Origin: Dehalococcoidia bacterium
Lineage (GTDB): Bacteria; Chloroflexota; Dehalococcoidia; Plut-88900
DNA: 64,000 bases
Reading direction: 5' to 3'
NCBI GenBank assembly: GCA_965249275.1
Contig: CBDFLQ010000005.1
Location: 323,030 to 387,029, forward strand
The number at the start of each line of letters is the position of its first letter. Position 1 is the stretch's first letter. Position numbers and translations under genes: made by a program. The notes below the pieces were generated by a model. That model saw only the letters and a list, made by a program, of their open reading frames with translations. It did no database searches and had not been told where the DNA came from. Of the stretch, positions 4,243 to 64,000 are shown one piece after another.

Positions 4243-5000
4243 TGAGAATTGTACCCTCCGTCTATTAGAAAGCTGGCTCCGGCCACGTATTCAGCATCGT
4301 CGGAGGCTAGGTAAAGGGCGAGCTTGGCGACGTCCTCGGGCACACCCATCCGGCCCACGGGTATGCCATCTGCGTATTTGGCAGCGATGGCTGGGGAACG
4401 AGAGACGCGTCGGGAGCCGGGGGTGTCGATCACACCGGGGACGATGCAGTTAACACGTATCCCACGCTCGCAATACTGGCTACTAGCGGTTTTGGTCAGC
4501 TGGACTATGCCAGCCTTGGTGACTGAGTAGGGCAAAGAGAAGGTGCTCCCCCGGAGCACGACTGCCGATGAGATGTTGATGATGGCCCCACCGCCGCCTT
4601 TCAGCATGGCGGGTATGGCGTACTTGCAACTTAGGAAAGGCCCCTTCAGAAACAACCCCAGTCCCGAGTCCCACTCCTCTTCAGTTACCTCGGCGACGGG
4701 GCCGGTCTCAGTTTGGCATGCAGCGCCGTTCACCAGGATATCGAGGCTGCCGTGCCGGGCCAGGGTGTCATCCATGAGGGTCTTCACCTGTGCTGAGTCG
4801 GTGACATCAACGCGGCGGAACTCGGAGCCTGCCCCCATCTCCTTAGCCTCGGTCACCGCTTGCTCCCCACCTGCTTCGTCTACGTCGGCGATTATGGTAA
4901 ATGCGCCTTCCTCGGCAAAGAGGAGAGCCGTGGCTCGGCTGATGCCCGATGCCGCACCCGTGACTATGGCCACCTTCCCAGCAAGCTTGCCGTTCATCAT
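4239..5000 (-). CDS. Short-chain dehydrogenase/reductase (FabG-like SDR)
   Basis: 253 aa. TGAASGIS Rossmann motif, a NISS-type motif, and YSVTKAG (the YxxxK catalytic motif). Confidence 0.9.
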   Translation of the reverse strand: MMNGKLAGKVAIVTGAASGISRATALLFAEEGAFTIIADVDEAGGEQAVTEAKEMGAGSEFRRVDVTDSAQVKTLMDDTLARHGSLDILVNGAACQTETGPVAEVTEEEWDSGLGLFLKGPFLSCKYAIPAMLKGGGGAIINISSAVVLRGSTFSLPYSVTKAGIVQLTKTASSQYCERGIRVNCIVPGVIDTPGSRRVSRSPAIAAKYADGIPVGRMGVPEDVAKLALYLASDDAEYVAGASFLIDGGYNSQ

Positions 5001-6239
5001 CTATCGCAGGTAGCCGAGGGCTGCGAGGGCGTAGATCTTCGCCGAGCTGATAAGGTCGTCCACCGGGACCCGCTCGTTGGGACCGTGGGCCATGCTGAGG
5101 AGGCCCGGGCCGAAGGCAGAGATGGTCGGGGTTCGGGCGATGGTCTGGAAGTAGGGTGCATCCGTGCCGCCTGTGAAGCCACCTATTTGCGGCTTGAACC
5201 CGAGCACCCGGTCTGTGGCATCGAGTATCGAGTCCACCAGAGGGTGATTAGCCGGTATCTCTGCCCCGTCAATCCAGCCCTGGCCATCGGCGAGGACCAT
5301 CTCGACGTCGAGGTCGGGATCTTCCTTGCGGAGCTTGTCCAGGAAGCCGTTGAGGTCTTCCATCACCGTGTCACGGGTCATGCCGGGGAGGAGCCGGATG
5401 TCGTTCTTCGCCTCCATGTAGCCGGGGATGATGCAGTAGTTGACGCCGCCGTTCATAGTCTCGGCGAGGTTAATGGTGATTCCCTGGGGGTAGAGGGGGT
5501 GGGGTTCGTGTCGGATGACCAACTCCTCCGACATCCGGTAGAGCACCTTTGCCAGTTTAACCCCTGCATTCACGCCGTTCCTGATGTCAGACTGGCTGCT
5601 GTGCATCTGGGTGCCCTTCACCATCAACGTGAAGCAAATCGCACCCCGGCAGGCGGTGGCCAGGAAATCGAGGCCCGACTCCATTCCAGACGGCTCACCG
5701 ATGAGGCAGGCGTCGGCCTCCGCCAAGCCCTCGCGGGCCATGTACTCGGCGCCGTAGTGACCGCCGTTCTCCTCGTCGGAGGTGAAGGCCAGGACCAGCT
5801 CCCCATTGAAGGGAGCTCCCGTCTCCTTGATGGCGATGGCCCCGTACAGCATGGCGGCTATGGGGCCCTTCATGTCGGCCGCTCCTCGGCCGTAGAGTTC
5901 ACCGTCGATGATCTCTGCGCCGTAGGGGTCGGCGCGCCAATGGGAGCGCTCATCCTCTCCGACCGGTACGACGTCGGTGTGGCCGTTGTAGATGAGTCTC
6001 TTGCCGGACCCCTGGCCCTTCAGGGTGGTAATGACACTGGGCCGCTCCGGGTCGGAGGCAATGGTTATCGTGTCTCCCAGCGAATAGCGGTCTATGACCT
6101 GTTTCAGTGCCTCCGCGACTTCCCTCTCGCCGCCCGGGGGGTTCTCCGAGGGTCGCTGCAGGAGGGCCTGGGCCAGCCCAACGAGCTCGTCACGCCTGGC
6201 GTCGATGGCATCCAGAATCCGGGACTCGTTCATCGTCAT
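5001..6239 (-). CDS. M20 family metallopeptidase (ArgE/DapE-like deacylase)
   Basis: 412 aa. HTDVVPVG and GRGAADMKG motifs. The long + strand ORF 4860..6299 is its antisense shadow. Confidence 0.85.
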   Translation of the reverse strand: MTMNESRILDAIDARRDELVGLAQALLQRPSENPPGGEREVAEALKQVIDRYSLGDTITIASDPERPSVITTLKGQGSGKRLIYNGHTDVVPVGEDERSHWRADPYGAEIIDGELYGRGAADMKGPIAAMLYGAIAIKETGAPFNGELVLAFTSDEENGGHYGAEYMAREGLAEADACLIGEPSGMESGLDFLATACRGAICFTLMVKGTQMHSSQSDIRNGVNAGVKLAKVLYRMSEELVIRHEPHPLYPQGITINLAETMNGGVNYCIIPGYMEAKNDIRLLPGMTRDTVMEDLNGFLDKLRKEDPDLDVEMVLADGQGWIDGAEIPANHPLVDSILDATDRVLGFKPQIGGFTGGTDAPYFQTIARTPTISAFGPGLLSMAHGPNERVPVDDLISSAKIYALAALGYLR

Positions 6240-6718
6240 CCCTCCTTGAAAGGTTGTTTGGGGTTCGGGGCTTGGGGGAGAGTATATATCAGGCGGTAAA
6301 TCTTATGATTATCTCTGAATGTTTCTGATTGCTTCCGTGGCTGTTTGATTGATCCGGGGAGAATGTTCCCGCGGGCCTCGGGGGGATGAGCGTCGGGAAA
6401 AGGCGGGAATGCGTTGAAAGGCATAGGGCATTATAGGGAGGTGGGGTGGGGGTGGGGCAAGGGGTTCATGTCACTCGCCGAGGCGAGTCTTCGACTCTCC
6501 TCAGCGAGCCTACGGCCCCATCCCCTTTCACGCGGGAGGGGACACCCCCCGCTTGACCCTTCGAGTGCGTCAGGGTGAGCGGCCCCTCCCTGGGATTCAC
6601 ACCATGTCATACCTGCGGTTCTAAAGTCACAAACGAAGTGCACCACCTGATGAGGGTGCGTCGTGGGAAGAGGTGTTGGGGGTGGATAGGCCGTACTTCG
6701 TGAGCGCGCAAGTCCTAG

Positions 6719-7914
6719 GAAACCTCTGAACAAGTCTAAGGGCATAGGTAATAGGTAAGATAGGGAGAGTAAGGCCAAAGCTGAGGTGAGATTTGATGGA
6801 GCAGCCGACATTTGCAGACTTGGAATACGAGGGCAAGAAGCGAAAGACCCGCCGGGAGATATTTCTGGAGCGGATGGAGGACCTGGTTCCATGGGGAAAG
6901 TTAGAGGAGCGAATCCGGCCCTACTATTCCAGGGCGGGCCGTGGACGGAGGCCCTACGAGTTGTCGGTGATGCTGCGGATACACTGCGTGCAGCTGTTCT
7001 ACAACCTGAGCGATCCGGGCATGGAGGACATGCTCTACGAGGTGGAGTCGGTGAGGCGGTTCGCAGGTCTGAGGCTGTCCGGCCCCTTGCCTGACGAGAC
7101 TACGATACTGAACTTCCGCCATCTGCTGGAAGAGCAGGAGTTGGGTCGGGGGCTGTTCGAGGAGATCAACCGTCATCTGGAGTCTCGGGGACTGAGGCTC
7201 AGGGAGGGTACGATTGTGGATGCGAGCATCATCGAGGCGCCGGCGTCTACGAAGAACCGTGCTGGAGAGCGAGACCCCGATATGCACCAAGTGAAGAAGG
7301 GGAAGGAGTGGCACTTCGGTATGAAAGTGCACATTGGTGCAGACGCTGACACGGGGGTGGTGCACAGTATGAGTACGACAGCTGCGAACGTGCATGACGT
7401 GACGGAGGCGCACCGGCTGCTGCATGGAGGGGAGAGGCGAGTGTGGGGAGATGCGGGATATCAGGGAGTGGAGAAGCGGGCGGAGAATCGGGATATGGAT
7501 GTGGAGTGGCGGGTGGCGATGAGACCTGGACGGCGTCGGAAACTGAGGGCGGGGAGCTGCGAGGCCTTAGCGGAGAAGAGCAAATCATCCATCAGGGCTA
7601 AGGTGGAGCATCCGTTCCTGTACGTGAAACGGCACTTCGGCTACGCCAAGGTCCGCTACAGGGGCTTGTACAAGAACACGCAACGGGTGGCGATGCTGCT
7701 GGGGCTGGCCAACTTGGTAAGGGCCGAGCGCCACTTAGCGGTGTGACGGAGGAGCAGTGTGGTCAAATCCGGGTCGATGGTGACTGGATGCCCTGACAGG
7801 CCAGAACATAGGATGCAAATAAGCCACCGAGACGCAACATTACGACCCAACCTCTCCCCAAAACTCCATGCAAGACAACCTAAGCTGGTTTACAGTGAGT
7901 TGTTCAGAGCTTCC
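6719..7914 (+). mobile_element. IS5-family insertion sequence, copy 1 (1196 bp)
   Basis: Imperfect terminal IRs GGAAACCTCTGAACAAGTC / GGAAGCTCTGAACAACTC. Flanked by CTAG at 6715-6718 and 7915-7918. As far as compared, identical to the copy at 16952..18147. Confidence 0.9.
6793..7746 (+). CDS. IS5-family DDE transposase
   Basis: 317 aa. N-terminus QPTFADLEYEGKKRKTRREIFL...RPYELSVMLRIHCVQLFYNLSD closely parallels the E. coli IS5 transposase. Confidence 0.95.
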   Translation: MMEQPTFADLEYEGKKRKTRREIFLERMEDLVPWGKLEERIRPYYSRAGRGRRPYELSVMLRIHCVQLFYNLSDPGMEDMLYEVESVRRFAGLRLSGPLPDETTILNFRHLLEEQELGRGLFEEINRHLESRGLRLREGTIVDASIIEAPASTKNRAGERDPDMHQVKKGKEWHFGMKVHIGADADTGVVHSMSTTAANVHDVTEAHRLLHGGERRVWGDAGYQGVEKRAENRDMDVEWRVAMRPGRRRKLRAGSCEALAEKSKSSIRAKVEHPFLYVKRHFGYAKVRYRGLYKNTQRVAMLLGLANLVRAERHLAV

Positions 7915-7999
7915 CTAGATTCCTCGCGGAGCCGCGGAATGACACGGGGGGGGCAGGGGAGATGGGTGGGGACGGGGGCGGATGTGAGAAAATGCATAT

Positions 8000-56757: not shown

Positions 56758-56781
56758 TTGGGCGGGGGGACAGGAGAAGTA

Positions 56782-57915
56782 CTAGTTGAAGTGGGGAATG
56801 ACTTCTGAGGCGAAGAGGTCTAGGCTGCGCATTACCTGCTTGAAGGTCAGGGCCGGGAAATTCAGGAACAGGGCGAGATGCCGGCAGCCCGTCTCTGATA
56901 TCAGCTCCTCGATCTGCTCCCTTACCGTCTCAGGAGACCCAACGAGGATCAGGTCGTGCTTTAGGTTGAAGTCGAAGTAGCTGAGGTTGTAGTCGTCGTC
57001 GGTTAGCTCGTGCTCGAAGGCCATACGGGTGCGGACCTTGCGGGGGTCGTGCTTGGCCCACTCGCCGAACATGTTGAACCCGTCACGCACGTCATTCACC
57101 GCCTCTTCGTAGGTCTCGGCGATGTAGGTGGGACGCATTACGGCCACCTTCTCGCCTGGCTGGAGGTCCTGGCCCTCGGTCTCCAAGGAGACTTCGTTGT
57201 AAATGCCCCACGCTTCCCTGATCTTCTCATACGACAGTGCCAGGCATATGTTCCCCATTCCCCTGCTTGCGGCGAACCGGTGGGAGGGTATGGAGTCGCC
57301 CATCTGCCACATGGGGGGATGGGGCTTCTGGTAGGGTTTCGGGTGTACTCCGAGGGCAATCAACTCTCCGTCGGGGGAGTGGAATCGGGTGTCGCGGGTG
57401 GAAGTCGAGGGCTCTATCCATCCCGGCTCAGGGAAGCGGTAGAACTCGCCCGAGTAGGTGAATGCATCCTCAGTCCAGGCCTTCTTGACGATGTCGAGGG
57501 ACTCTGCGAAGAGGGCGTAGCTGCGGTCGTGGTCTCGGCGGTCGGCGTCGGGGTGGAACTGGATTGAAGCCCGGCTGTTCAATCCCCGGGCCACGCCGAA
57601 GTCGACGCGGCCCTTGGAAAAATGGTCCAGCAGAGCGACGTCCTCTGCGACACGGAGGGGGTGCCAGTCGGGCAGGATGACACCGCATTGGCCTATGCGA
57701 AGGGTGTCGGTGTGGGCGGCGAGGTCTTGCCCGAGCATCAGCGGGTTCGGCGAAGTCCCGAGCCAGCCATCCCATGCGAAATGGTGCTCGGCGATCCAGA
57801 CCCCCGTGAAGCCGCCCTGTTCCAGCAGCCGGGCCTCGTCCCGCATCTCGTCGACCATTTTGTCCCACGGGTAGACGCTGCCGAGGTGGTAGTAAGGCGT
57901 GCTATCGAATCTCAT
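56782..57915 (-). CDS. LLM-class (luciferase-like) flavin-dependent oxidoreductase
   Basis: WIAEHHF motif and TIM-barrel LLM pattern. The ATG at 57915 (MRFDSTPYY), preceded by GAAGGAAGG, is preferred over the ORF-track start at 57993. Confidence 0.85.
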   Translation of the reverse strand: MRFDSTPYYHLGSVYPWDKMVDEMRDEARLLEQGGFTGVWIAEHHFAWDGWLGTSPNPLMLGQDLAAHTDTLRIGQCGVILPDWHPLRVAEDVALLDHFSKGRVDFGVARGLNSRASIQFHPDADRRDHDRSYALFAESLDIVKKAWTEDAFTYSGEFYRFPEPGWIEPSTSTRDTRFHSPDGELIALGVHPKPYQKPHPPMWQMGDSIPSHRFAASRGMGNICLALSYEKIREAWGIYNEVSLETEGQDLQPGEKVAVMRPTYIAETYEEAVNDVRDGFNMFGEWAKHDPRKVRTRMAFEHELTDDDYNLSYFDFNLKHDLILVGSPETVREQIEELISETGCRHLALFLNFPALTFKQVMRSLDLFASEVIPHFN

Positions 57916-58014
57916 GGGGCCTTCCTTCGCTGCTCTCTTAGGCTCGGGACCTAGGGGTCGAATGTTACCACCAAGGGGGGAGGGGTGGGGCAATCAGCGG
58001 GAGGGTTAAGTAGC

Positions 58015-58371
58015 CTAGTAGAAGATGGAACGGGTGGGGACTAGTCGCCATTGCACCGGGTCGGCTGCAAGGCGCAGGCCTTCAAGGGTGTAGGCCCCCA
58101 GGAGGGGTGGGGTGCCGTCTTCGCCGAATATCACCAATGAGACCTCACTGGCCCCGTCTATGGTGACCCAGACCCGTCCCATCTCCAGCTCAACGATTCG
58201 ACCGTCCGCCAGTTCGAATTCGGCTTTGCCGATTGATGCGACGCCCAACCGGCGCAACATACCGTATGGCAACATGGTATAGGTTGCCCCGGTGTCCACC
58301 GTTGCCTCGATGTCCAGCACCTCTCCGCCGTCCATGCTGGTAATTTGTAACGGCGAGCTAAAAACTCCCAT
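58015..58371 (-). CDS. Retropepsin-like (clan AA) aspartic protease domain protein
   Basis: 118 aa. VDTGAT active-site motif and a single-domain size consistent with homodimeric retropepsin-like proteins. Confidence 0.6.
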   Translation of the reverse strand: MGVFSSPLQITSMDGGEVLDIEATVDTGATYTMLPYGMLRRLGVASIGKAEFELADGRIVELEMGRVWVTIDGASEVSLVIFGEDGTPPLLGAYTLEGLRLAADPVQWRLVPTRSIFY

Positions 58372-58517
58372 ATTGGGAACCTCTTTCTAAGCTATGTCGC
58401 CTGGCTATGTCACCTGATGGCTGGAACTCAATCCAAACCTTACCAAAAGCTGCAGCAAGTTTGCCACACATCTCAATCCCTGTGGTATTTTGAGCATGCC
58501 CAACGGCTCAACTGGAG

Positions 58518-59075
58518 ATGCTTGCCTTGAACATGACAAATGCCGACCAATCCTTTATCCGAAGGATGTACACCGCCGACAACCTACCTGTCTTGCAACG
58601 ACTCCCCGACGCATCAGTCGACCTCATCTACCTGGACCCGCCCTTCAATTCCAACCGGGACTACGCTGCGCCTATAACGGTTAAGAACCCCAAGACCGGC
58701 AAGCGGGAAAAGCACCTGGCCGAGTTCAAGGACACTTGGACTTTCACTGATGACGACGCCGAGTGGTTATATGTTATTAGGTCTGACTATCCCACCGTCT
58801 ATGCAGTGATCGAGTCAGTCAAAACAGCCCACAGCTTCCGCATGGCGGGCTACTTGTGCATGATGGCTGTCCGGTTACTCGAAATGCAACGCATTCTCAA
58901 GCATAGCGGGGCGATATATCTACACTGCGATCCTACCGCATCTCACTATCTGAAACTGCTCATGGACACAGTATTCGGCCCGTCAAACTTCAAGGCTGAC
59001 ATTACTTGGAGGCGAACTAGCAGCCATAACGACGTAAGGCGGAATTACGGTGCATTGGGAGACAACTTATTCTTT
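58518..59075 (+). pseudogene. DNA methyltransferase-HNH gene, 5' fragment (interrupted by transposon)
   Basis: Beta-class order, with motif IV first (DLIYLDPPFNS). The frame runs into the transposon IR and stops after 6 foreign codons (ORF-track end 59093). Confidence 0.85.
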
Positions 59076-59123
59076 GGGAATTATATACAATAAGGCATCA
59101 GGAATTGGCCTGATAAACCATAC

Positions 59124-59525
59124 CTATCGTGGACGACGGCCCAACGTCGAGGTTGTGTGACCTGTTGCCGTGTTATTTTCCGCCGACCACTCCCAATTTC
59201 GGGTCAACTCTTTCAGCCATTGGGCACCTTCGGCAGCATCAAAATCACTCGCACCGCAATCGGGCCAATTGGGGCGACCAGAATAGTTCATCTTCACTCC
59301 CTGCGCCGATGCAATGAACCAGACCGAATCAGCGTCTGTTCGCTCCTTAGAATTATCACGACCCCATTCAACGTACATTGAAAAGGGAGACACATTTACA
59401 TTCGTCGGCCAAACAAAATCGTTCGGAAGATGCTCCAACAGCGCCTCCAGCGCCTGCGTCATCTGATGCATGCTGTCTACCACCCCGTACATGGACCCGC
59501 ATCCCGAAGAACCTTCAATCGTCAT
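59124..59525 (-). CDS. Hypothetical protein (transposon passenger)
   Basis: 133-aa ORF with no recognisable motif. Confidence 0.45.
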   Translation of the reverse strand: MTIEGSSGCGSMYGVVDSMHQMTQALEALLEHLPNDFVWPTNVNVSPFSMYVEWGRDNSKERTDADSVWFIASAQGVKMNYSGRPNWPDCGASDFDAAEGAQWLKELTRNWEWSAENNTATGHTTSTLGRRPR

Positions 59526-59629
59526 AATACTCCTTGCTTACGAACATCTTAGCTATCCAACTGTCTCTTTTTCCCGCGTCTCGCCGTAGGTCTTTACTAC
59601 TCTCTCGGGGTTTGAGAACGTGGGTTGGT

Positions 59630-59718
59630 GGGTAAGTGCCGGAACCGGCAGACGGGCTATCCTGCCAAGATAGTGGCCCTTCGTGGTCGTAGGGGTTCGA
59701 TCCCCCTCTTACCCACCA
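59630..59718 (+). tRNA. Class II (long variable arm) tRNA, Leu-type scaffold, anticodon GCC (isotype/anticodon mismatch)
   Basis: Hand fold. Acceptor GGGTAAG/CTTACCC, U8, D arm CCG-GAACCGGCAGA-CGG, anticodon stem CTATC/GATAG with loop CTGCCAA (GCC at 59664-59666). 17-nt variable arm, T arm AGGGG-TTCGATC-CCCCT, A73, encoded CCA. Confidence 0.7.
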
Positions 59719-59728
59719 ACCCCTCTAA

Positions 59729-59956
59729 TTATCCTCGAGGCGGGAAGGGATCGTTGCCGTAGCTGTCCTTCTCCCTGATCTTCCCGTCCTTGCCATGTAA
59801 GTAATACTCGGCGTCATGGTTTCGAGCAACCTGCCGGCCGTAAGAATCTGCCTCGGCCTGGGTATCGAAGGACTTCGTAATCCTCGATGCTCCGCCCTTC
59901 CGCACAGCCCACTTATCCCCATAGGGAACGGTGTGTTGAGTTTCTTTGCGTGCCAT
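59729..59956 (-). CDS. DUF2188-like small protein (transposon passenger)
   Basis: 75 aa. ...W.V.K.G..R..K.F.TQ.EA...GR..A.N....Y.HG.DG.I pattern. Confidence 0.55.
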   Translation of the reverse strand: MARKETQHTVPYGDKWAVRKGGASRITKSFDTQAEADSYGRQVARNHDAEYYLHGKDGKIREKDSYGNDPFPPRG

Positions 59957-60293
59957 TACATTACCTCTGTTATCTAAGGTGCTACCTCTTTATGGTCCTT
60001 CCCGTCGTCCTGCTCCTCACCCTTCTTGGGATTCGGCCCCTTCACCACCGCCCGTAGCACATCCTCAAACGTGTCGGGTATGTGGAGCCTCTCAAACGGG
60101 CTTCTGTCTTCGCTCTTTTTCATCTTATATAGATTATACCCCCACTTGCCTGAGATTGAAACACCTGTGCGGTATGGCACTATAGAAACTAAGGGGGGGT
60201 AAGTAGACGGTAGACTTTACCCTCCCTACCTGTTGATAATTCCAATATAGAAGAAAGCCTTGGAGGTTAATCACATCTCCAAGACTCTCATCA

Positions 60294-60382
60294 GCCGTAG
60301 TGGTGGAACTGGTAGACACGCCCGGCTTGCACCCGGGTGGACTAATCGTCCGTGCAGGGTTCGAATCCCGCCTACGGCACCA
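60294..60382 (+). tRNA. Class II tRNA, Leu-type scaffold, anticodon UGC (isotype/anticodon mismatch)
   Basis: Hand fold. Acceptor GCCGTAG/CTACGGC, D arm GTG-GAACTGGTAGA-CAC, anticodon stem CCCGG/CCGGG with loop CTTGCAC (TGC at 60328-60330). 16-nt variable arm (GGAC/GTCC stem). T arm GC(A)GGG-TTCGAAT-CCCGC with one bulged A. A73 and encoded CCA. Confidence 0.6.
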
Positions 60383-60598
60383 CTCTTCTTGATCCCTATT
60401 TTCATTATAAACACCTCTTCACCTTCCTGTAAATTCGTTGACGTCTACCCCCTGTGGGTGTACCTTGTCCCCGCTTAGGTAGTCTACCCGTACGCTGAAC
60501 GTTATTTGGGCATGGGGCCGCTCATGCCCCCTTGCCAGTGAAACGGGCCAGGACTGCCTAAGCAACGGTCACCAGCCTAGCTGCAAGGGGGTTCCAAT

Positions 60599-61144
60599 AT
60601 GACAAAAAGCCGAATCGGGTTTTGGCTACTCATCTCTCTAATCCCTATGGGATTACTCACCTTCCTCGGATTCATCATAAGCATTGTTCTATTCATAGGG
60701 TCCAGTAGTGATGAACCAGAGGGAGCCGAAATAGCATGTACCTTTGTCTTCTTTGCTTCGCTCTTCTACTGGTGGGGTGCTCTCTTCACCGGCATCGGAT
60801 TGAAGATATTGTCCAGGCGGGAAAATCAGCAGATGTTTGCTCAAGCTCAGCGATACGCCGAGGTACACGGATGGCAACCCATCTCGCAGTCCGCATGGAG
60901 AGCACTTAAAGCAGACAGAGCTTCCCTTGCTGTAAGTCGAAGCATTCAGGGGACGATGTATACCCTCACTATCGCATCAGGAGTGAACACCACCACTGTC
61001 ACTAACTTCGCTACACCTCTATGGGCACTACAATTTGGTGACTGGTTATGGGAGAGAACGGGGGGCGAAAACATCACCCCAGAGACAGCACAGGCTCAAC
61101 GGCAAGAATGGTCTCAGAACTTGGCAATCATTCCCACCGTCTAG
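60599..61144 (+). CDS. Hypothetical membrane protein (transposon passenger)
   Basis: 181 aa with two N-terminal TM helices. Confidence 0.5.
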   Translation: MTKSRIGFWLLISLIPMGLLTFLGFIISIVLFIGSSSDEPEGAEIACTFVFFASLFYWWGALFTGIGLKILSRRENQQMFAQAQRYAEVHGWQPISQSAWRALKADRASLAVSRSIQGTMYTLTIASGVNTTTVTNFATPLWALQFGDWLWERTGGENITPETAQAQRQEWSQNLAIIPTV

Positions 61145-61159
61145 CCATCCATACGGTAA

Positions 61160-62077
61160 CTACACATTGGTAATTAAGTCGTCGTAGGTTAGTCGCTTGC
61201 CGTGCGTTCCCTTGATCAACCTCTTCATCTGGTCAAGGGTATCCATGGGCCGGTCGTTGTGCCGCCCAGCGAACTCGGTGGCATAGCGGCTCAAGTGTTT
61301 GGGAGAGACATGGTGGTAAGTACCCATAATCCCCCGCTTGAGCATGGCCCAGTGGCTCTCGATGCTGTTGGTCGTAACCTCACCCCTAACGTACTCCCCG
61401 GTGGCATGATCAACCGCTTCGTGCTTCAAGGGAATACCCCTGTAGGAGAGGTGTCCATCACTGTGCAAGGTAGCGTCCGGTTCAACGTTGTCGAGAACGA
61501 ATCCTTGGAGAATGGGTTTCTTCGTAGAGGGAAGCACCTCGGCCTTGATCTGATTAGTTGGCTTATCCAAGAGCCCCGCCACGATGGCCTTACCTTTAGG
61601 CCCTCTCCCCATGCCTCTCCACTTCCCGCCAACGTAGGTCTCATCCACCTCGACAGGCCCTCCGAAGAGTCCCTGCTCTGACTCCCACGCCTTCCGTATC
61701 CTGTGCGCCAAGTGCCAAGCTGATTTTTGGGTAATGTTGAGGTCCCGATGCAATTTCATCGAGGAAACGCCCTTGAGGTTCGTGGTCATGAGGTAAATGG
61801 CGATACCCCACTTGGAGAGAGGAAGGTTGGAACCGTGCATGACGGTGCCAGTTTTGACGGAAAATTCCAGCTGGCAGTAGGTGCAGTGTAAGGGCTTTAC
61901 CTTGCGGTTGGGGCGACGGGTGATCTCCATGCCGCCACAGCGGGGGCATGATATACCGCTGGGCCAACGAGACTCGATGAATAACTGCTCAGCCTTTTCC
62001 TCGGTGGAGAATAATTTAGTGACCTCCAGAAGGGACAAACCCTTCCGATAATGCTTACCTGGGGCGTTCCGTGCCAT
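61160..62077 (-). CDS. IS1595-family (ISXO2-like) transposase
   Basis: N-terminal zinc ribbon (CPRCGG...CTYC), then a DDE domain (VEVDETYVGG...LHSDGHLSY...NSIESHWAMLKR). The ORF extends to 62221, but MARNAPGKHY at 62077 is the likely start. Confidence 0.9.
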   Translation of the reverse strand: MARNAPGKHYRKGLSLLEVTKLFSTEEKAEQLFIESRWPSGISCPRCGGMEITRRPNRKVKPLHCTYCQLEFSVKTGTVMHGSNLPLSKWGIAIYLMTTNLKGVSSMKLHRDLNITQKSAWHLAHRIRKAWESEQGLFGGPVEVDETYVGGKWRGMGRGPKGKAIVAGLLDKPTNQIKAEVLPSTKKPILQGFVLDNVEPDATLHSDGHLSYRGIPLKHEAVDHATGEYVRGEVTTNSIESHWAMLKRGIMGTYHHVSPKHLSRYATEFAGRHNDRPMDTLDQMKRLIKGTHGKRLTYDDLITNV

Positions 62078-62390
62078 GCGCTGATCTCCTACTTCGGCTA
62101 TCCTTGTTGACATAACTATTATAACACATCTCCTAATTTGTGTAAACAATGCCCAAGCAATGGAGAAAACATGGAAAATACTGCTAAAACTTGGACACAA
62201 TTTCAGTGGAAATAGTATCATACGGAGGGCAGGGTACGCAAGGAATTTATGGCACCAGGAGGCACCAATGGTCCCCTATCGGGGAATGAAACTCAGCCGG
62301 CTCCACTTTGAATAGACGTTCTGCAAAAACGTCGTGGGGTTGGCTACAAGAAGGACATTTTAGACCCTTGCATACCCTGCCAATACAACG

Positions 62391-62487
62391 TGAGAGGACA
62401 TGCCTGTTGGTGCAGGCCAGAATTTGCCAAACTCTTGAGAACGTTGGCATATCCAACGTTGCGGTTCGATTCCGATCCTCTCCGCCA
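62391..62487 (+). tRNA. Aberrant tRNA-like gene (non-canonical cloverleaf, anticodon loop TTGCCAA = GCC); possibly a pseudogene
   Basis: 7-bp acceptor GAGAGGA/TCCTCTC flanked by mismatches. 5-bp D stem GCCTG/CAGGC. Anticodon stem AGAAT/ACTCT with one A-C mismatch. 8-bp variable-arm stem AACGTTGG/CCAACGTT. 3-bp T stem with a TTCGATT loop. G73 + CCA. Confidence 0.35.
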
Positions 62488-62875
62488 TCAAATAATTTGT
62501 ATTATCATATAGATGAGGGGAGTAGTGGTAATCCGGTAGACTCTCGATGTTCCCAACATCGGCATTGCTTAGGTAGTGTGTGTCAGACGCTGGCACAGAG
62601 TTTTTACAGAGGAACCATCTACTCTCCTTCAAGATTATACATGTCGCAGTCCCTGGCTGTGTGACAGGAACGCCTTGGTACCAGCGTTGGGCTTTCAACC
62701 TGACTGCGCCTCCATATCTCCTCAATTTGAATGGGAAACAAGATGGACGACCAGACATATGTCACTGTTGGAGGTTTGGCAAGACCTCCTTGATGAATTA
62801 GCGCTCGTGTTCAGCGTCGCTTCATATCTGGTCGTCCATCTCCCACTGCTTGATGCCTTATTGTATATAATTCCC

Positions 62876-63771
62876 TATTCTTTTATACGAAGAGCACTAA
62901 TTTCATATTTAATACTCAATACATGCCTTACTCCAAAGAGCACATGGAGAAATTTTACTCCCACATCGATAAAGACGGCAGAAAGTACAGCACTGACAAT
63001 TTGAGAAGCCCTGCACCCAGACCTAATTTGACTTACGAGTACAAGGGATACAAACCTCACCCCAATGGGTGGACAGTGTCACTTGAGAGAATGAAGCGAC
63101 TCGACGCAGAGGGGCGTCTTCATTTTCCGAAAAAGAAGGACGGTCGAATCCGCATAAAGAAATTCCTTGATGAAATGCCCGGCGTGCCTATGGGCAATAT
63201 ATGGGATGACATCAGACCTATCTCATCTCACTCTGAAGAACGCCTAGGCTACCCTACCCAGAAACCCTTGGCCCTGCTAGAACGCGTAATTAGGGCATCC
63301 ACCAACGAGGGCGATCTAGTTTTGGACCCCTTTGCGGGTTGCGCCACGGCCTGTGTCGCAGCGGAGAAACTGAAACGGCAGTGGATCGGCATTGACGTGA
63401 GCGACCTTGCAGTCAAGCACGTCTTGGAGCGCATCCAGGATGGTTACAACCAGGGCGACTTCCCGGATATCCTTGAAACAGGGTTCCATCCCGACAAGGT
63501 GGATCACTTAGTTATCAGTGGGGAGGCACGCGCCCCGCGCTACCAAGACCGCAAGCCGGAGCTATACGTACACCAGAACGGCAGGTGTGCGGGCTGCCAC
63601 CTCGAACTCCCGGAGCGCCTTCTGGCCGTGGACCATATTAAGCCGAGATCCAAGGGGGGCGCCGACGCTATCGAAAACCTTCAACTCCTCTGCACTGACT
63701 GCAACTCCCGCAAAGGCAACCGGGACATGAAATACCTGTTGGAGTCCCTAAAGAGGGACGGAATAATTTAG
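62876..63771 (+). pseudogene. DNA methyltransferase-HNH gene, 3' fragment
   Basis: In frame with the 5' fragment once the transposon and one TSD copy are removed (…LFF|YTKSTNFIFNTQYMPYSKEH…). Contains PTQKP, AdoMet motif I (DPFAGCATA) and a C-terminal HNH nuclease (CAGCH...DHIKPRSKGG...NLQLLCTDCNSRKGN). Confidence 0.85.
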
Positions 63772-63789
63772 AGGCGAGGGCTTTCCAAT

Positions 63790-64000
63790 ATGACCATAGA
63801 CATTCACAACCACATCTGGACCCGGGAGTATCTTTCCGACCACTGGTGGGATATTTACGCAAACTTTTTCTCTAGCTATATCACCGACTCCCCATTCTCG
63901 GGGACGCCGGAGGAGATAGACCGGAACCTGTTTGCCAAATGCTTTGATCCCGACGGCTCGGAGTGCATAGTGGAGATGGATGAGGCGGGGATAGACGTGG
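63790..64000 (+). CDS. Amidohydrolase-family protein (5' partial, runs off window)
   Basis: MTIDIHNHIW... is the typical metal-binding start (HxH) of amidohydrolase-2/ACMSD-like enzymes. No stop occurs before the window end. Confidence 0.6.
   Translation, partial: MTIDIHNHIWTREYLSDHWWDIYANFFSSYITDSPFSGTPEEIDRNLFAKCFDPDGSECIVEMDEAGIDV

Follow-up and report, generated by a model that had tools for sequence, protein, structure and literature searches.

The stretch analysed here, referred to as the window, comprises 64,000 nucleotides (64 kb) from a Dehalococcoidia bacterium (GenBank assembly GCA_965249275.1, contig CBDFLQ010000005.1, positions 323,030 to 387,029 of the forward strand). Within it, two fragments of a DNA methyltransferase-HNH gene are separated by a 3800-bp element (59076-62875) bounded by terminal inverted repeats. 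The repeat at the cargo side (GGGAATTATATACAATAAGGCATCA, 59076-59100, + strand) contains a core, GGGRATTATATAC, common to 40 related loci, and is matched perfectly by the repeat at the transposase side (62851-62875, - strand). In the 64-kb window GGGAATTATATACAATAAGGCATCA occurs at exactly these two places, and it was found in none of 100 shuffled sequences. The inverted repeat is perfect over 25 bp; a longer version of 33 nt matches at 91%. Directly outside the repeats lie the left (59068-59075) and right (62876-62883) copies of an 8-bp target-site duplication, TATTCTTT. Between the repeats are an IS1595 transposase gene and about 2.9 kb of passengers, namely four protein open reading frames (ORFs) and three tRNA-like genes. 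An earlier sequence-only reading of the window had pointed out the inverted repeats, the 8-bp direct repeat and a raised A+T content of the region. All three were reproduced: G+C amounts to 51.5% in the element and 51-52% in the methyltransferase fragments, compared with 59.9% in bases 1-58000.

The N-terminal fragment of the interrupted gene (58518-59075, + strand) encodes part of a beta-class N4/N6 DNA methyltransferase and matches positions 1-94 of the Pfam N6_N4_Mtase profile; the start of its homologs corresponds to the ATG at 58533. The C-terminal fragment (62884-63771, + strand) matches profile positions 132-216 and HNH. In silico excision of 59076-62883 gives an open frame of 481 aa, in which PF01555 (N6_N4_Mtase) is matched in one stretch over profile positions 1-216 (E = 4.3e-41) and PF01844 (HNH) with E = 3.5e-14. 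The repaired protein has the motif order of the beta class, with DPPF at residues 40-43 preceding the FxGxG-like DPFAGCAT at 334-341. The C-terminal fragment falls into a 90%-identity cluster whose other members measure 465-478 aa. The repaired protein shares 99% identity with P0149 and 98% with P0158, both of them uninterrupted, and these alignments cross the junction without a gap; the two fragments are contiguous in P0149, P0156 and P0158. The 481-aa methyltransferase with a C-terminal HNH nuclease domain, predicted earlier from the excision, is thus borne out by the frame, the Pfam stretch and the uninterrupted homologs.

The pre-insertion site was found in other assemblies (related loci and contigs are designated L001, L002 and so on). 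Window positions 56773-59075 align to 2805-5116 of L100, and positions 62876-63998 align to 5109-6231 of the same contig. The two alignments overlap by exactly 8 bases (TATTCTTT), so the empty site holds a single copy of TATTCTTT. L099 shows the same pattern, the two being independent metagenome contigs, and both have the neighbours seen in the window: a luciferase-like gene, an aspartyl-protease-like ORF, the methyltransferase-HNH gene and Amidohydro_2. The empty sites prove that the whole 3800 bp went in at once, as a clean and recent insertion. This is what the sequence-only reading had claimed and proposed to check by an empty-site search. The insertion is polymorphic, closely related genomes keeping the intact gene at the same place.

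These data also bear on the possibility that the repeats and the duplication arose as an artefact of assembly or that the methyltransferase gene naturally ends at this position. Both had been named earlier as findings that would overturn the interpretation. Full-length homologs are collinear across the junction. Against an artefact stand the perfection of the repeats and of the 8-bp duplication, the empty site, which is exact in two further assemblies, and the same architecture in more than 20 genomes. Both alternatives are exceedingly improbable and are effectively excluded.

The segment 59076-62875 is therefore best described as an IS1595-family transporter IS (tIS; IS, insertion sequence) with one DDE transposase gene and several passenger genes, whose clean, recent insertion splits a methyltransferase-HNH gene (probability about 90%). 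Several points weigh against this description or parts of it. The junctions of this assembly are known from assembled sequence. The window holds one copy of the element and its exact transposase sequence occurs on a single contig of the collection, so that any current activity of this copy is conjectural. The sample behind the comparison of tRNA genes is very small: three sequences come from the site between ORF68 and the membrane-protein gene, and four from beside the transposase gene. The third tRNA-like gene (62392-62482) reached 34.6 bits with the Rfam model of selenocysteine tRNA (tRNA-Sec, RF01852), below its gathering score of 47, and was not called by ARAGORN.

The transposase gene (61160-62077, - strand) is intact and encodes a 305-aa IS1595-family DDE transposase, as Pfam, NCBIfam and the alignment of relatives agree; the family named by the sequence-only reading was upheld. 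The Pfam matches are Zn_ribbon_IS1595 (PF12760, E = 3.5e-8) and DDE_Tnp_IS1595 (PF12762, E = 1.8e-30), and the NCBIfam model transpos_IS1595 (NF033547) gave 170.8 bits with a cut-off of 75. The protein can be aligned over 97-100% of its length with 7940 relatives, and its start coincides with that of its homologs (MA.KAPGKHYRKG). D145, D207 and E240 show no variation among 35 relatives, and these conserved acidic residues are probably catalytic. In addition, the protein has E240-x6-K247 and E268-x3-R272; DDEK and ER4 are what we take to be the signature of the ISNwi1 subgroup in the ISfinder table. A sigma-70-type promoter-like site, TTTACA-17-TATAAT (62118-62146, - strand), lies upstream of the gene and matches the consensus at 11 of 12 positions, a match to the consensus being its only support.

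The transposase, with an N-terminal zinc ribbon and a DDE domain, is predicted to bind both 25-bp repeats and to carry out strand transfer. The whole unit would go in where an AT-rich target is cut with an 8-bp stagger, and repair of the staggered cut would produce the TATTCTTT duplication. IS1595 elements may move either by cut-and-paste or by copy-and-paste.

Transposases 50-61% identical to that of the window were found at 80 genome loci, mostly in Dehalococcoidia metagenome-assembled genomes (MAGs), and an end motif, GGRATTATATAC, is common to 40 of these loci. The closest transposase relatives are those of L001 (90% identical), L002 (80%) and L003 (73%). Twenty-four elements could be delimited; they measure 2.35-4.2 kb and all carry passengers. 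The sequence-only reading had regarded cargo and size as exceptional for IS1595, a view that did not hold, the size being normal for this branch. Perfect 8-bp duplications flank 21 of the 23 relatives in which they could be tested. These duplications have a mean G+C of 19%, whereas the loci around them have 60%; AT-rich sites thus seem to be strongly preferred as targets, and TATTCTTT agrees with this. One Dehalococcoidia MAG (CBDHDB01) holds four identical copies of 2511 bp (L067-L070) with four different 8-bp duplications, which shows that the subfamily was recently active. A scan of metagenome contigs with the transposase alone returned no relative, and one with an alignment returned only relatives of at most 56% identity, none of them with a tRNA. 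When the whole element was compared with plasmids by blastn, the only match was an 89-nt tRNA stretch.

The usual cargo of the relatives consists of restriction-modification genes, including homologs of the gene interrupted here. According to Pfam, the passengers include a methyltransferase-HNH fusion (L026, L059), an NgoFVII-like nuclease (L048) and a KilA-N/P63C protein (L043). In L041 and L044 (element at 4902-7916 in locus coordinates), a D12-class methyltransferase and a NotI-like endonuclease lie between IS1595 repeats with 8-bp duplications. These two loci represent a complete-looking type II restriction-modification pair, present in two copies in one Dehalococcoidia genome.

The interrupted methyltransferase-HNH protein is about 50% identical to the passenger encoded directly after the transposase gene in many relatives. 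Such passenger homologs lie at 5996-7447 in L026, 6367-7779 in L037, 6017-7381 in L008 and 5993-7202 in L067-L070, all within the element borders. The possibility that the target gene itself sits inside a decayed tIS was ruled out, as no repeat-like flanks were detected around it in the window, L099 or L100. The lack of repeat remnants makes it a free-standing chromosomal copy, and its low G+C suggests that it was itself acquired. The resemblance between the target and the passenger of relatives may be due either to chance, given the preference for AT-rich targets, or to a bias towards such genes.

Passenger genes between the repeats, forming one moving unit, make the element a tIS, a class already named and described (10.1101/2021.05.26.445724). 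It shares with other IS1595-family tIS a single zinc-ribbon DDE transposase, short inverted repeats, an 8-bp duplication and passengers inside the repeats. It differs in carrying tRNA-derived genes and structured non-coding RNA domains. Moreover, the spacer between repeat and transposase gene measures 650-800 bp in the close clade, whereas it is about 85 bp in most of the 50-61% relatives. The ISfinder label that would presumably apply is ISNwi1, or an 'ISNwi1+' subgroup with passengers; GGGAATTAT would fit an ISNwi1 end consensus of ggnnatTAT. The element also falls inside the size range of 1.75-4.75 kb that we take to hold for passenger-bearing ISNwi1 members. An IS1595 subgroup with passenger genes was reportedly treated by Siguier, Gagnevin & Chandler in 2009 (Res Microbiol 160:232).

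As a transposon insertion, the locus records an ordinary, routine event; its cargo is the noteworthy part. In an uncultured Chloroflexota-like genome, it provides a well-documented case in which a gene of the restriction-modification type has been inactivated by a tIS and the empty site is known exactly. The element also belongs to a large, active IS1595 branch that moves restriction-modification and defence genes as passengers in Dehalococcoidia. Recognition of tIS helps annotation, in which these units are readily divided by mistake into an 'IS' and 'host genes'.

Two of the passengers are class-II tRNA genes. tRNA-like gene 1 (59630-59718, + strand, 89 nt) has a Leu-like body and the anticodon GCC (Gly); it was called by ARAGORN and scored 88.7 bits with model R1. 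tRNA gene 2 (60294-60382, + strand, 89 nt) combines a tRNA-Leu-type body with the anticodon UGC (Ala); it was called by ARAGORN and reached 47.2 bits with the Rfam tRNA model (gathering score 29). In both, the variable arm is long, acceptor and T-stem are arranged as 7/5, the discriminator is A73 and the gene encodes CCA. Of the three tRNA-like genes announced by the sequence-only reading, these two were confirmed, as Leu bodies with Gly and Ala anticodons, while the third proved degenerate and below threshold. The closest relative of tRNA 1 is the transposase-proximal tRNA of L002, which has the anticodon CGC. Outside the anticodon arm, tRNA 2 agrees with a genuine Dehalococcoidia tRNA-Leu(GAG) in L013 at 57 of 72 body positions (79%), and the D-arm GUGGUGGAAYUGGUAGACAC is identical in the two. 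The window anticodons, UGC and GCC, depart from the leucine set (NAG or YAA), as do AGG in L001, GCC in L101 and CGC in L002. Nor do the tRNAs fit the identity sets of their anticodons. Alanyl-tRNA synthetase (AlaRS) recognizes G3:U70, and bacterial tRNA-Gly has U73 and C2:G71. tRNA 2 has C3-G70 and thus lacks the AlaRS determinant, and tRNA 1 has A73 and G2-C71. The T-stem of tRNA 2 is bulged. U33 is present in the window and L101 copies; copy L001b has C33. The 5' leader of tRNA-like gene 1, GGGTTGGT, can pair without a mismatch with the discriminator, CCA and trailer of the same gene (ACCAACCC; window 59622-59722). This pairing lengthens the acceptor helix to 15 bp, and inspection of the flanks suggests that it is not kept in the L002 homolog.

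The position of tRNA 2 is occupied by anticodon UGC in the window, AGG in L001 and GCC in L101. Among these three orthologs the body is 81-92% identical and the 150-nt flanks are 63-88% identical, while the 7-nt anticodon loop matches at 1-3 of 7 positions. Between the window and L101, the anticodon stem is identical at 10 of 10 positions, yet the loops, CUUGCAC and GUGCCAU, differ at 4 of 7. Figures of 89-92% for the tRNA body and 63-72% for the flanks show the body to be better conserved. In an alignment of eight class-II tRNAs (seven cargo tRNAs and the host tRNA-Leu of L013), 96% of cells in the cloverleaf are paired and 18 of 22 pairs show a compensatory change. The 257-bp block that holds tRNA 2 is missing from L096 and L097 and is present as a degenerate copy in L095, and the tRNA 1 type stands at a different position in L002. 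Hence, tRNA units have been gained, lost and moved within elements. About 70 of the 80 genome loci are without any tRNA, so a tRNA is not needed for transposition.

One explanation holds that the genes are hitch-hiking copies of tRNA-Leu which decay as pseudogenes, the anticodon differences being neutral drift. tRNA-like 3 and the L095 copy are clearly degenerate, and L096 and L097 have no tRNA 2 block. The tRNA-Leu(UAA) of L001 and L003 would fit codon supplementation, since TTA makes up 12% of leucine codons in element genes versus 2% in host genes. Nevertheless, drift should break stems, which are 96% paired, and it should not spare the window/L101 anticodon stem while the loops diverge or keep the body so much better conserved than its flanks. 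Conserved bodies, intact stems and loop-specific change argue against pure decay, and this explanation is considered unlikely.

The tRNA genes are presumed to be expressed. Leucyl-tRNA synthetase (LeuRS) would be the likely charging enzyme, if the tRNAs are charged, because it does not read the anticodon; PMC11028032 states that Leu aminoacyl-tRNA synthetase does not recognise anticodon bases. In that case, the genes could encode translation-active missense tRNAs that insert Leu at Gly, Ala and Pro codons, and the transposon would spread code-altering or mistranslating tRNAs. Well-formed cloverleaves, Leu-type bodies, A73, encoded CCA, U33 in the window and L101 copies, the missing G3:U70 of tRNA 2 and the A73 of tRNA 1 in place of the U73 of bacterial tRNA-Gly are all consistent with this proposal, as is a body better conserved than its flanks around a varying loop. 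In E. coli, activity is documented for allo-tRNAs that have non-cognate anticodons (PMC5389517). However, proteome-wide mistranslation should be costly, C33 in L001b and the bulged T-stem of tRNA 2 speak against the proposal, and the sample is very small. Overall, missense decoding has to be regarded as rather improbable.

The known tRNA systems offer partial parallels. Allo-tRNAs (PMC5389517) share with the tRNAs described here a long variable arm, anticodons that mismatch the body and a diversity of anticodons. They have, however, an 8/4 or 9/3 acceptor/T arrangement and mostly Ser identity, as opposed to the 7/5 arrangement, Leu-type D-arms and A73 of tRNAs 1 and 2, which places these two outside the allo-tRNA class. 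By analogy, they may work in a similar way. Only tRNA-like 3, with a 6-bp D-stem and a 3-bp T-stem, resembles a degenerate allo-tRNA or tRNA-Sec shape. The tRNAs of phages and mobile elements, discussed in terms of codon supplementation and escape from anticodon nucleases, are likewise found on an AT-richer element in a GC-richer host, and the tRNA-Leu(UAA) of L001 and L003 fits the higher TTA use of the element. Here, the carrier is a 3.8-kb DDE transposon, and supplementation does not explain most cargo copies, as their anticodon mismatches the body. Mistranslating anticodon variants of Leu, Ser and Ala tRNAs (for example PMC11028032) also join a Leu-type body to a non-Leu anticodon. Those variants are single-nucleotide changes in chromosomal eukaryotic or engineered genes, whereas whole loops or arms differ on the bacterial mobile elements.

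The literature searched held no description of a tIS with tRNA cargo or of anticodon-variable Leu-type tRNAs on a DDE transposon. To our knowledge, no tIS with tRNA cargo has been described. Viral contig scans with two tRNA-specific patterns found nothing.

A third tRNA-like gene lies in the 773-bp spacer between the transposase gene and the inverted repeat, which is non-coding. tRNA-like 3 (62391-62486, + strand), recognized by RNAfold and a sub-threshold Rfam tRNA-Sec match, has the look of a degenerate tRNA-Sec or allo-tRNA. Its 6-bp D-stem closes a 4-nt loop, the variable arm measures 8 bp and the T-stem 3 bp, and the molecule ends in G-CCA; the acceptor is a 7-bp stem plus a U1.C72 mismatch. 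The anticodon arm is badly formed, with UUGCCAA in the loop region. The tRNA-Sec matches, at 34.6 and 27.4 bits, stay below the threshold of 47, and a UCA anticodon is missing, which places tRNA-like 3 outside tRNA-Sec; model R1 did not detect it. In L001, L002 and L003 the same slot holds an 88-89-nt long-arm tRNA, located divergently upstream of the transposase gene, with the anticodons UAA, CGC and UAA, respectively. All four transposase-proximal copies begin the acceptor stem with a U1.C72 mismatch (window 62391/62483, L001 137/53, L002 1495/1412, L003 2944), which elongator tRNAs do not usually have. The more distant L056, L021 and L064 independently carry tRNA-like genes in the spacer between repeat and transposase gene. 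In L007 (4831-4906) and L021 (4718-4793), class-I tRNAs of 76 nt with the serine anticodon GCU lie just upstream of related transposase genes, with Rfam scores of 74 and 59 bits. As tRNA-Ser of bacteria normally belongs to class II, these represent another mismatch of body and anticodon.

tRNA-like 3 is flanked by structured domains. Directly upstream, a conserved hairpin domain of 154 nt is closed by a 16-bp stem (62228-62381; presumably + strand), preceded by a promoter-like TGGACA-18-TATCAT at 62192-62221. Across the window, L001 and L002, 8 of its 37 predicted pairs are kept through double changes. Between tRNA-like 3 and the repeat, a conserved, structured-looking domain (62545-62745, + strand) shares 80% identity with L002; a comparison of two sequences shows four compensatory pairs in it. 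Indels of 1 nt and 5 nt in the window/L002 alignment show that it is non-coding, and the same indels ruled out ORFs 62576-63004 and 62360-62758 as genes. The tRNA and structured-RNA module beside the transposase gene may be part of the element's own regulation.

Such a role belongs to a broader explanation in which the tRNA-like genes act outside decoding, as processing signals, regulators of the transposase or of the passenger operon antisense to them, decoys for anticodon nucleases or mimics of uncharged tRNA. It draws on the repeated placement of a tRNA or tRNA-like gene between repeat and transposase gene, on the opposite strand, in the window, L001-L003, L056, L021 and L064. Consistent with it are the U1.C72 mismatch in all four close copies, the conserved flanks and adjoining structured domains of tRNA-like 3 despite its lack of a proper anticodon arm, and the defence-type cargo of relatives. 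Moreover, a minus-strand promoter-like site at 60433-60404 would drive a putative antisense transcript through tRNAs 2 and 1. Nevertheless, about 70 of 80 genome loci manage transposition without a tRNA, promoter support consists of consensus matching and the mechanism is hypothetical. Non-decoding roles are a tenable possibility, falling short of probable.

A bolder proposal joins elements of the above: this IS1595 tIS clade would carry expressed Leu-body tRNAs with diversifying anticodon loops, serving as Leu-inserting missense tRNAs or as anti-nuclease decoys. The loop variants behind it are UGC, AGG and GCC at one position and GCC and CGC at another. Judged from these few sequences, the proposal is speculative and probably wrong. 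If true, the transposon would serve as a mobile vehicle for RNAs that perturb the genetic code or counter defence. More generally, if the tRNAs are functional, natural missense tRNAs or tRNA decoys would travel on a simple DDE transposon, and an earlier suggestion linking odd long-arm tRNAs to transposable elements would gain a concrete, testable locus.

The tIS carries four further protein-coding passengers. ORF133 (59124-59525, - strand, 133 aa) is conserved in 11 homologs at 47-64% identity, adjoining GmrSD_N, HTH-Peptidase_M78 and DUF4411 genes. It matched nothing in Pfam, NCBIfam or PADLOC, and its AlphaFold2 model (predicted local distance difference test, pLDDT, 83) gave insignificant fold matches in the PDB (E at least 0.06, template modelling score, TM, below 0.35). 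The DUF2188 passenger (59729-59956, - strand, 75 aa) and a membrane protein had been listed by the sequence-only reading, and both stand. The former matches PF09954 (E = 4.8e-21) and the two PADLOC models of the candidate phage-defence family PDC-S16 over the full length of the models (E = 5e-32 and 5.6e-31). The latter (60599-61144, + strand, 181 aa) is predicted from two hydrophobic segments and has 25 homologs and no match in Pfam, NCBIfam or PADLOC. ORF68 (59974-60180, - strand, 68 aa) is 70-78% identical in L001, L002 and L096-L098 and likewise gave no family match in Pfam, NCBIfam or PADLOC. Together, ORF68 and the membrane protein are conserved in L001, L002 and L095-L098.

The membrane-protein gene is preceded by a promoter-like TTGACG and a structured 5' leader (60437-60598, + strand), delineated by alignments of six and eight loci. 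The leader is also found in L001, L002, L095-L098 and L101-L103. It contains a long helix formed by CTTAGGTAGTC and GACTGCCTAAG, and a pairing is predicted between its Shine-Dalgarno sequence AAGGGGG and a CCCCC run further upstream. Across the eight loci, compensatory changes occur at six pairs, and the leader may be a cis-regulatory RNA. Rfam searches with the leader and the spacer domains found nothing beyond matches to the tRNA clan.

L095-L098 represent decayed relics that lack repeats and retain no more than a transposase fragment of 71 aa. Their modules lie at 4448-5893 (L095), 5425-6879 (L096) and 5521-7090 (L097 and L098) and contain ORF68, the leader, the membrane protein and a 92-aa ORF, with DUF2188 additionally in L096. 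SelR, HIT and HD genes adjoin the cargo module in L095, L096 and L101.

The minus-strand promoter-like site within the cargo, TTTACA-18-TATAAT (60404-60433), agrees with the consensus at 11 of 12 positions, its only support being that match. The putative transcript would run antisense to tRNA 2, through ORF68 and DUF2188, antisense to tRNA 1 and then through ORF133.

Outside the element, directly upstream of the target gene, a 118-aa ORF (58015-58371, - strand) encodes retropepsin-like aspartyl-protease domains (gag-asp_proteas, Asp_protease_2). This neighbour is conserved in L100, and L097 and L098 have ORFs that resemble it.

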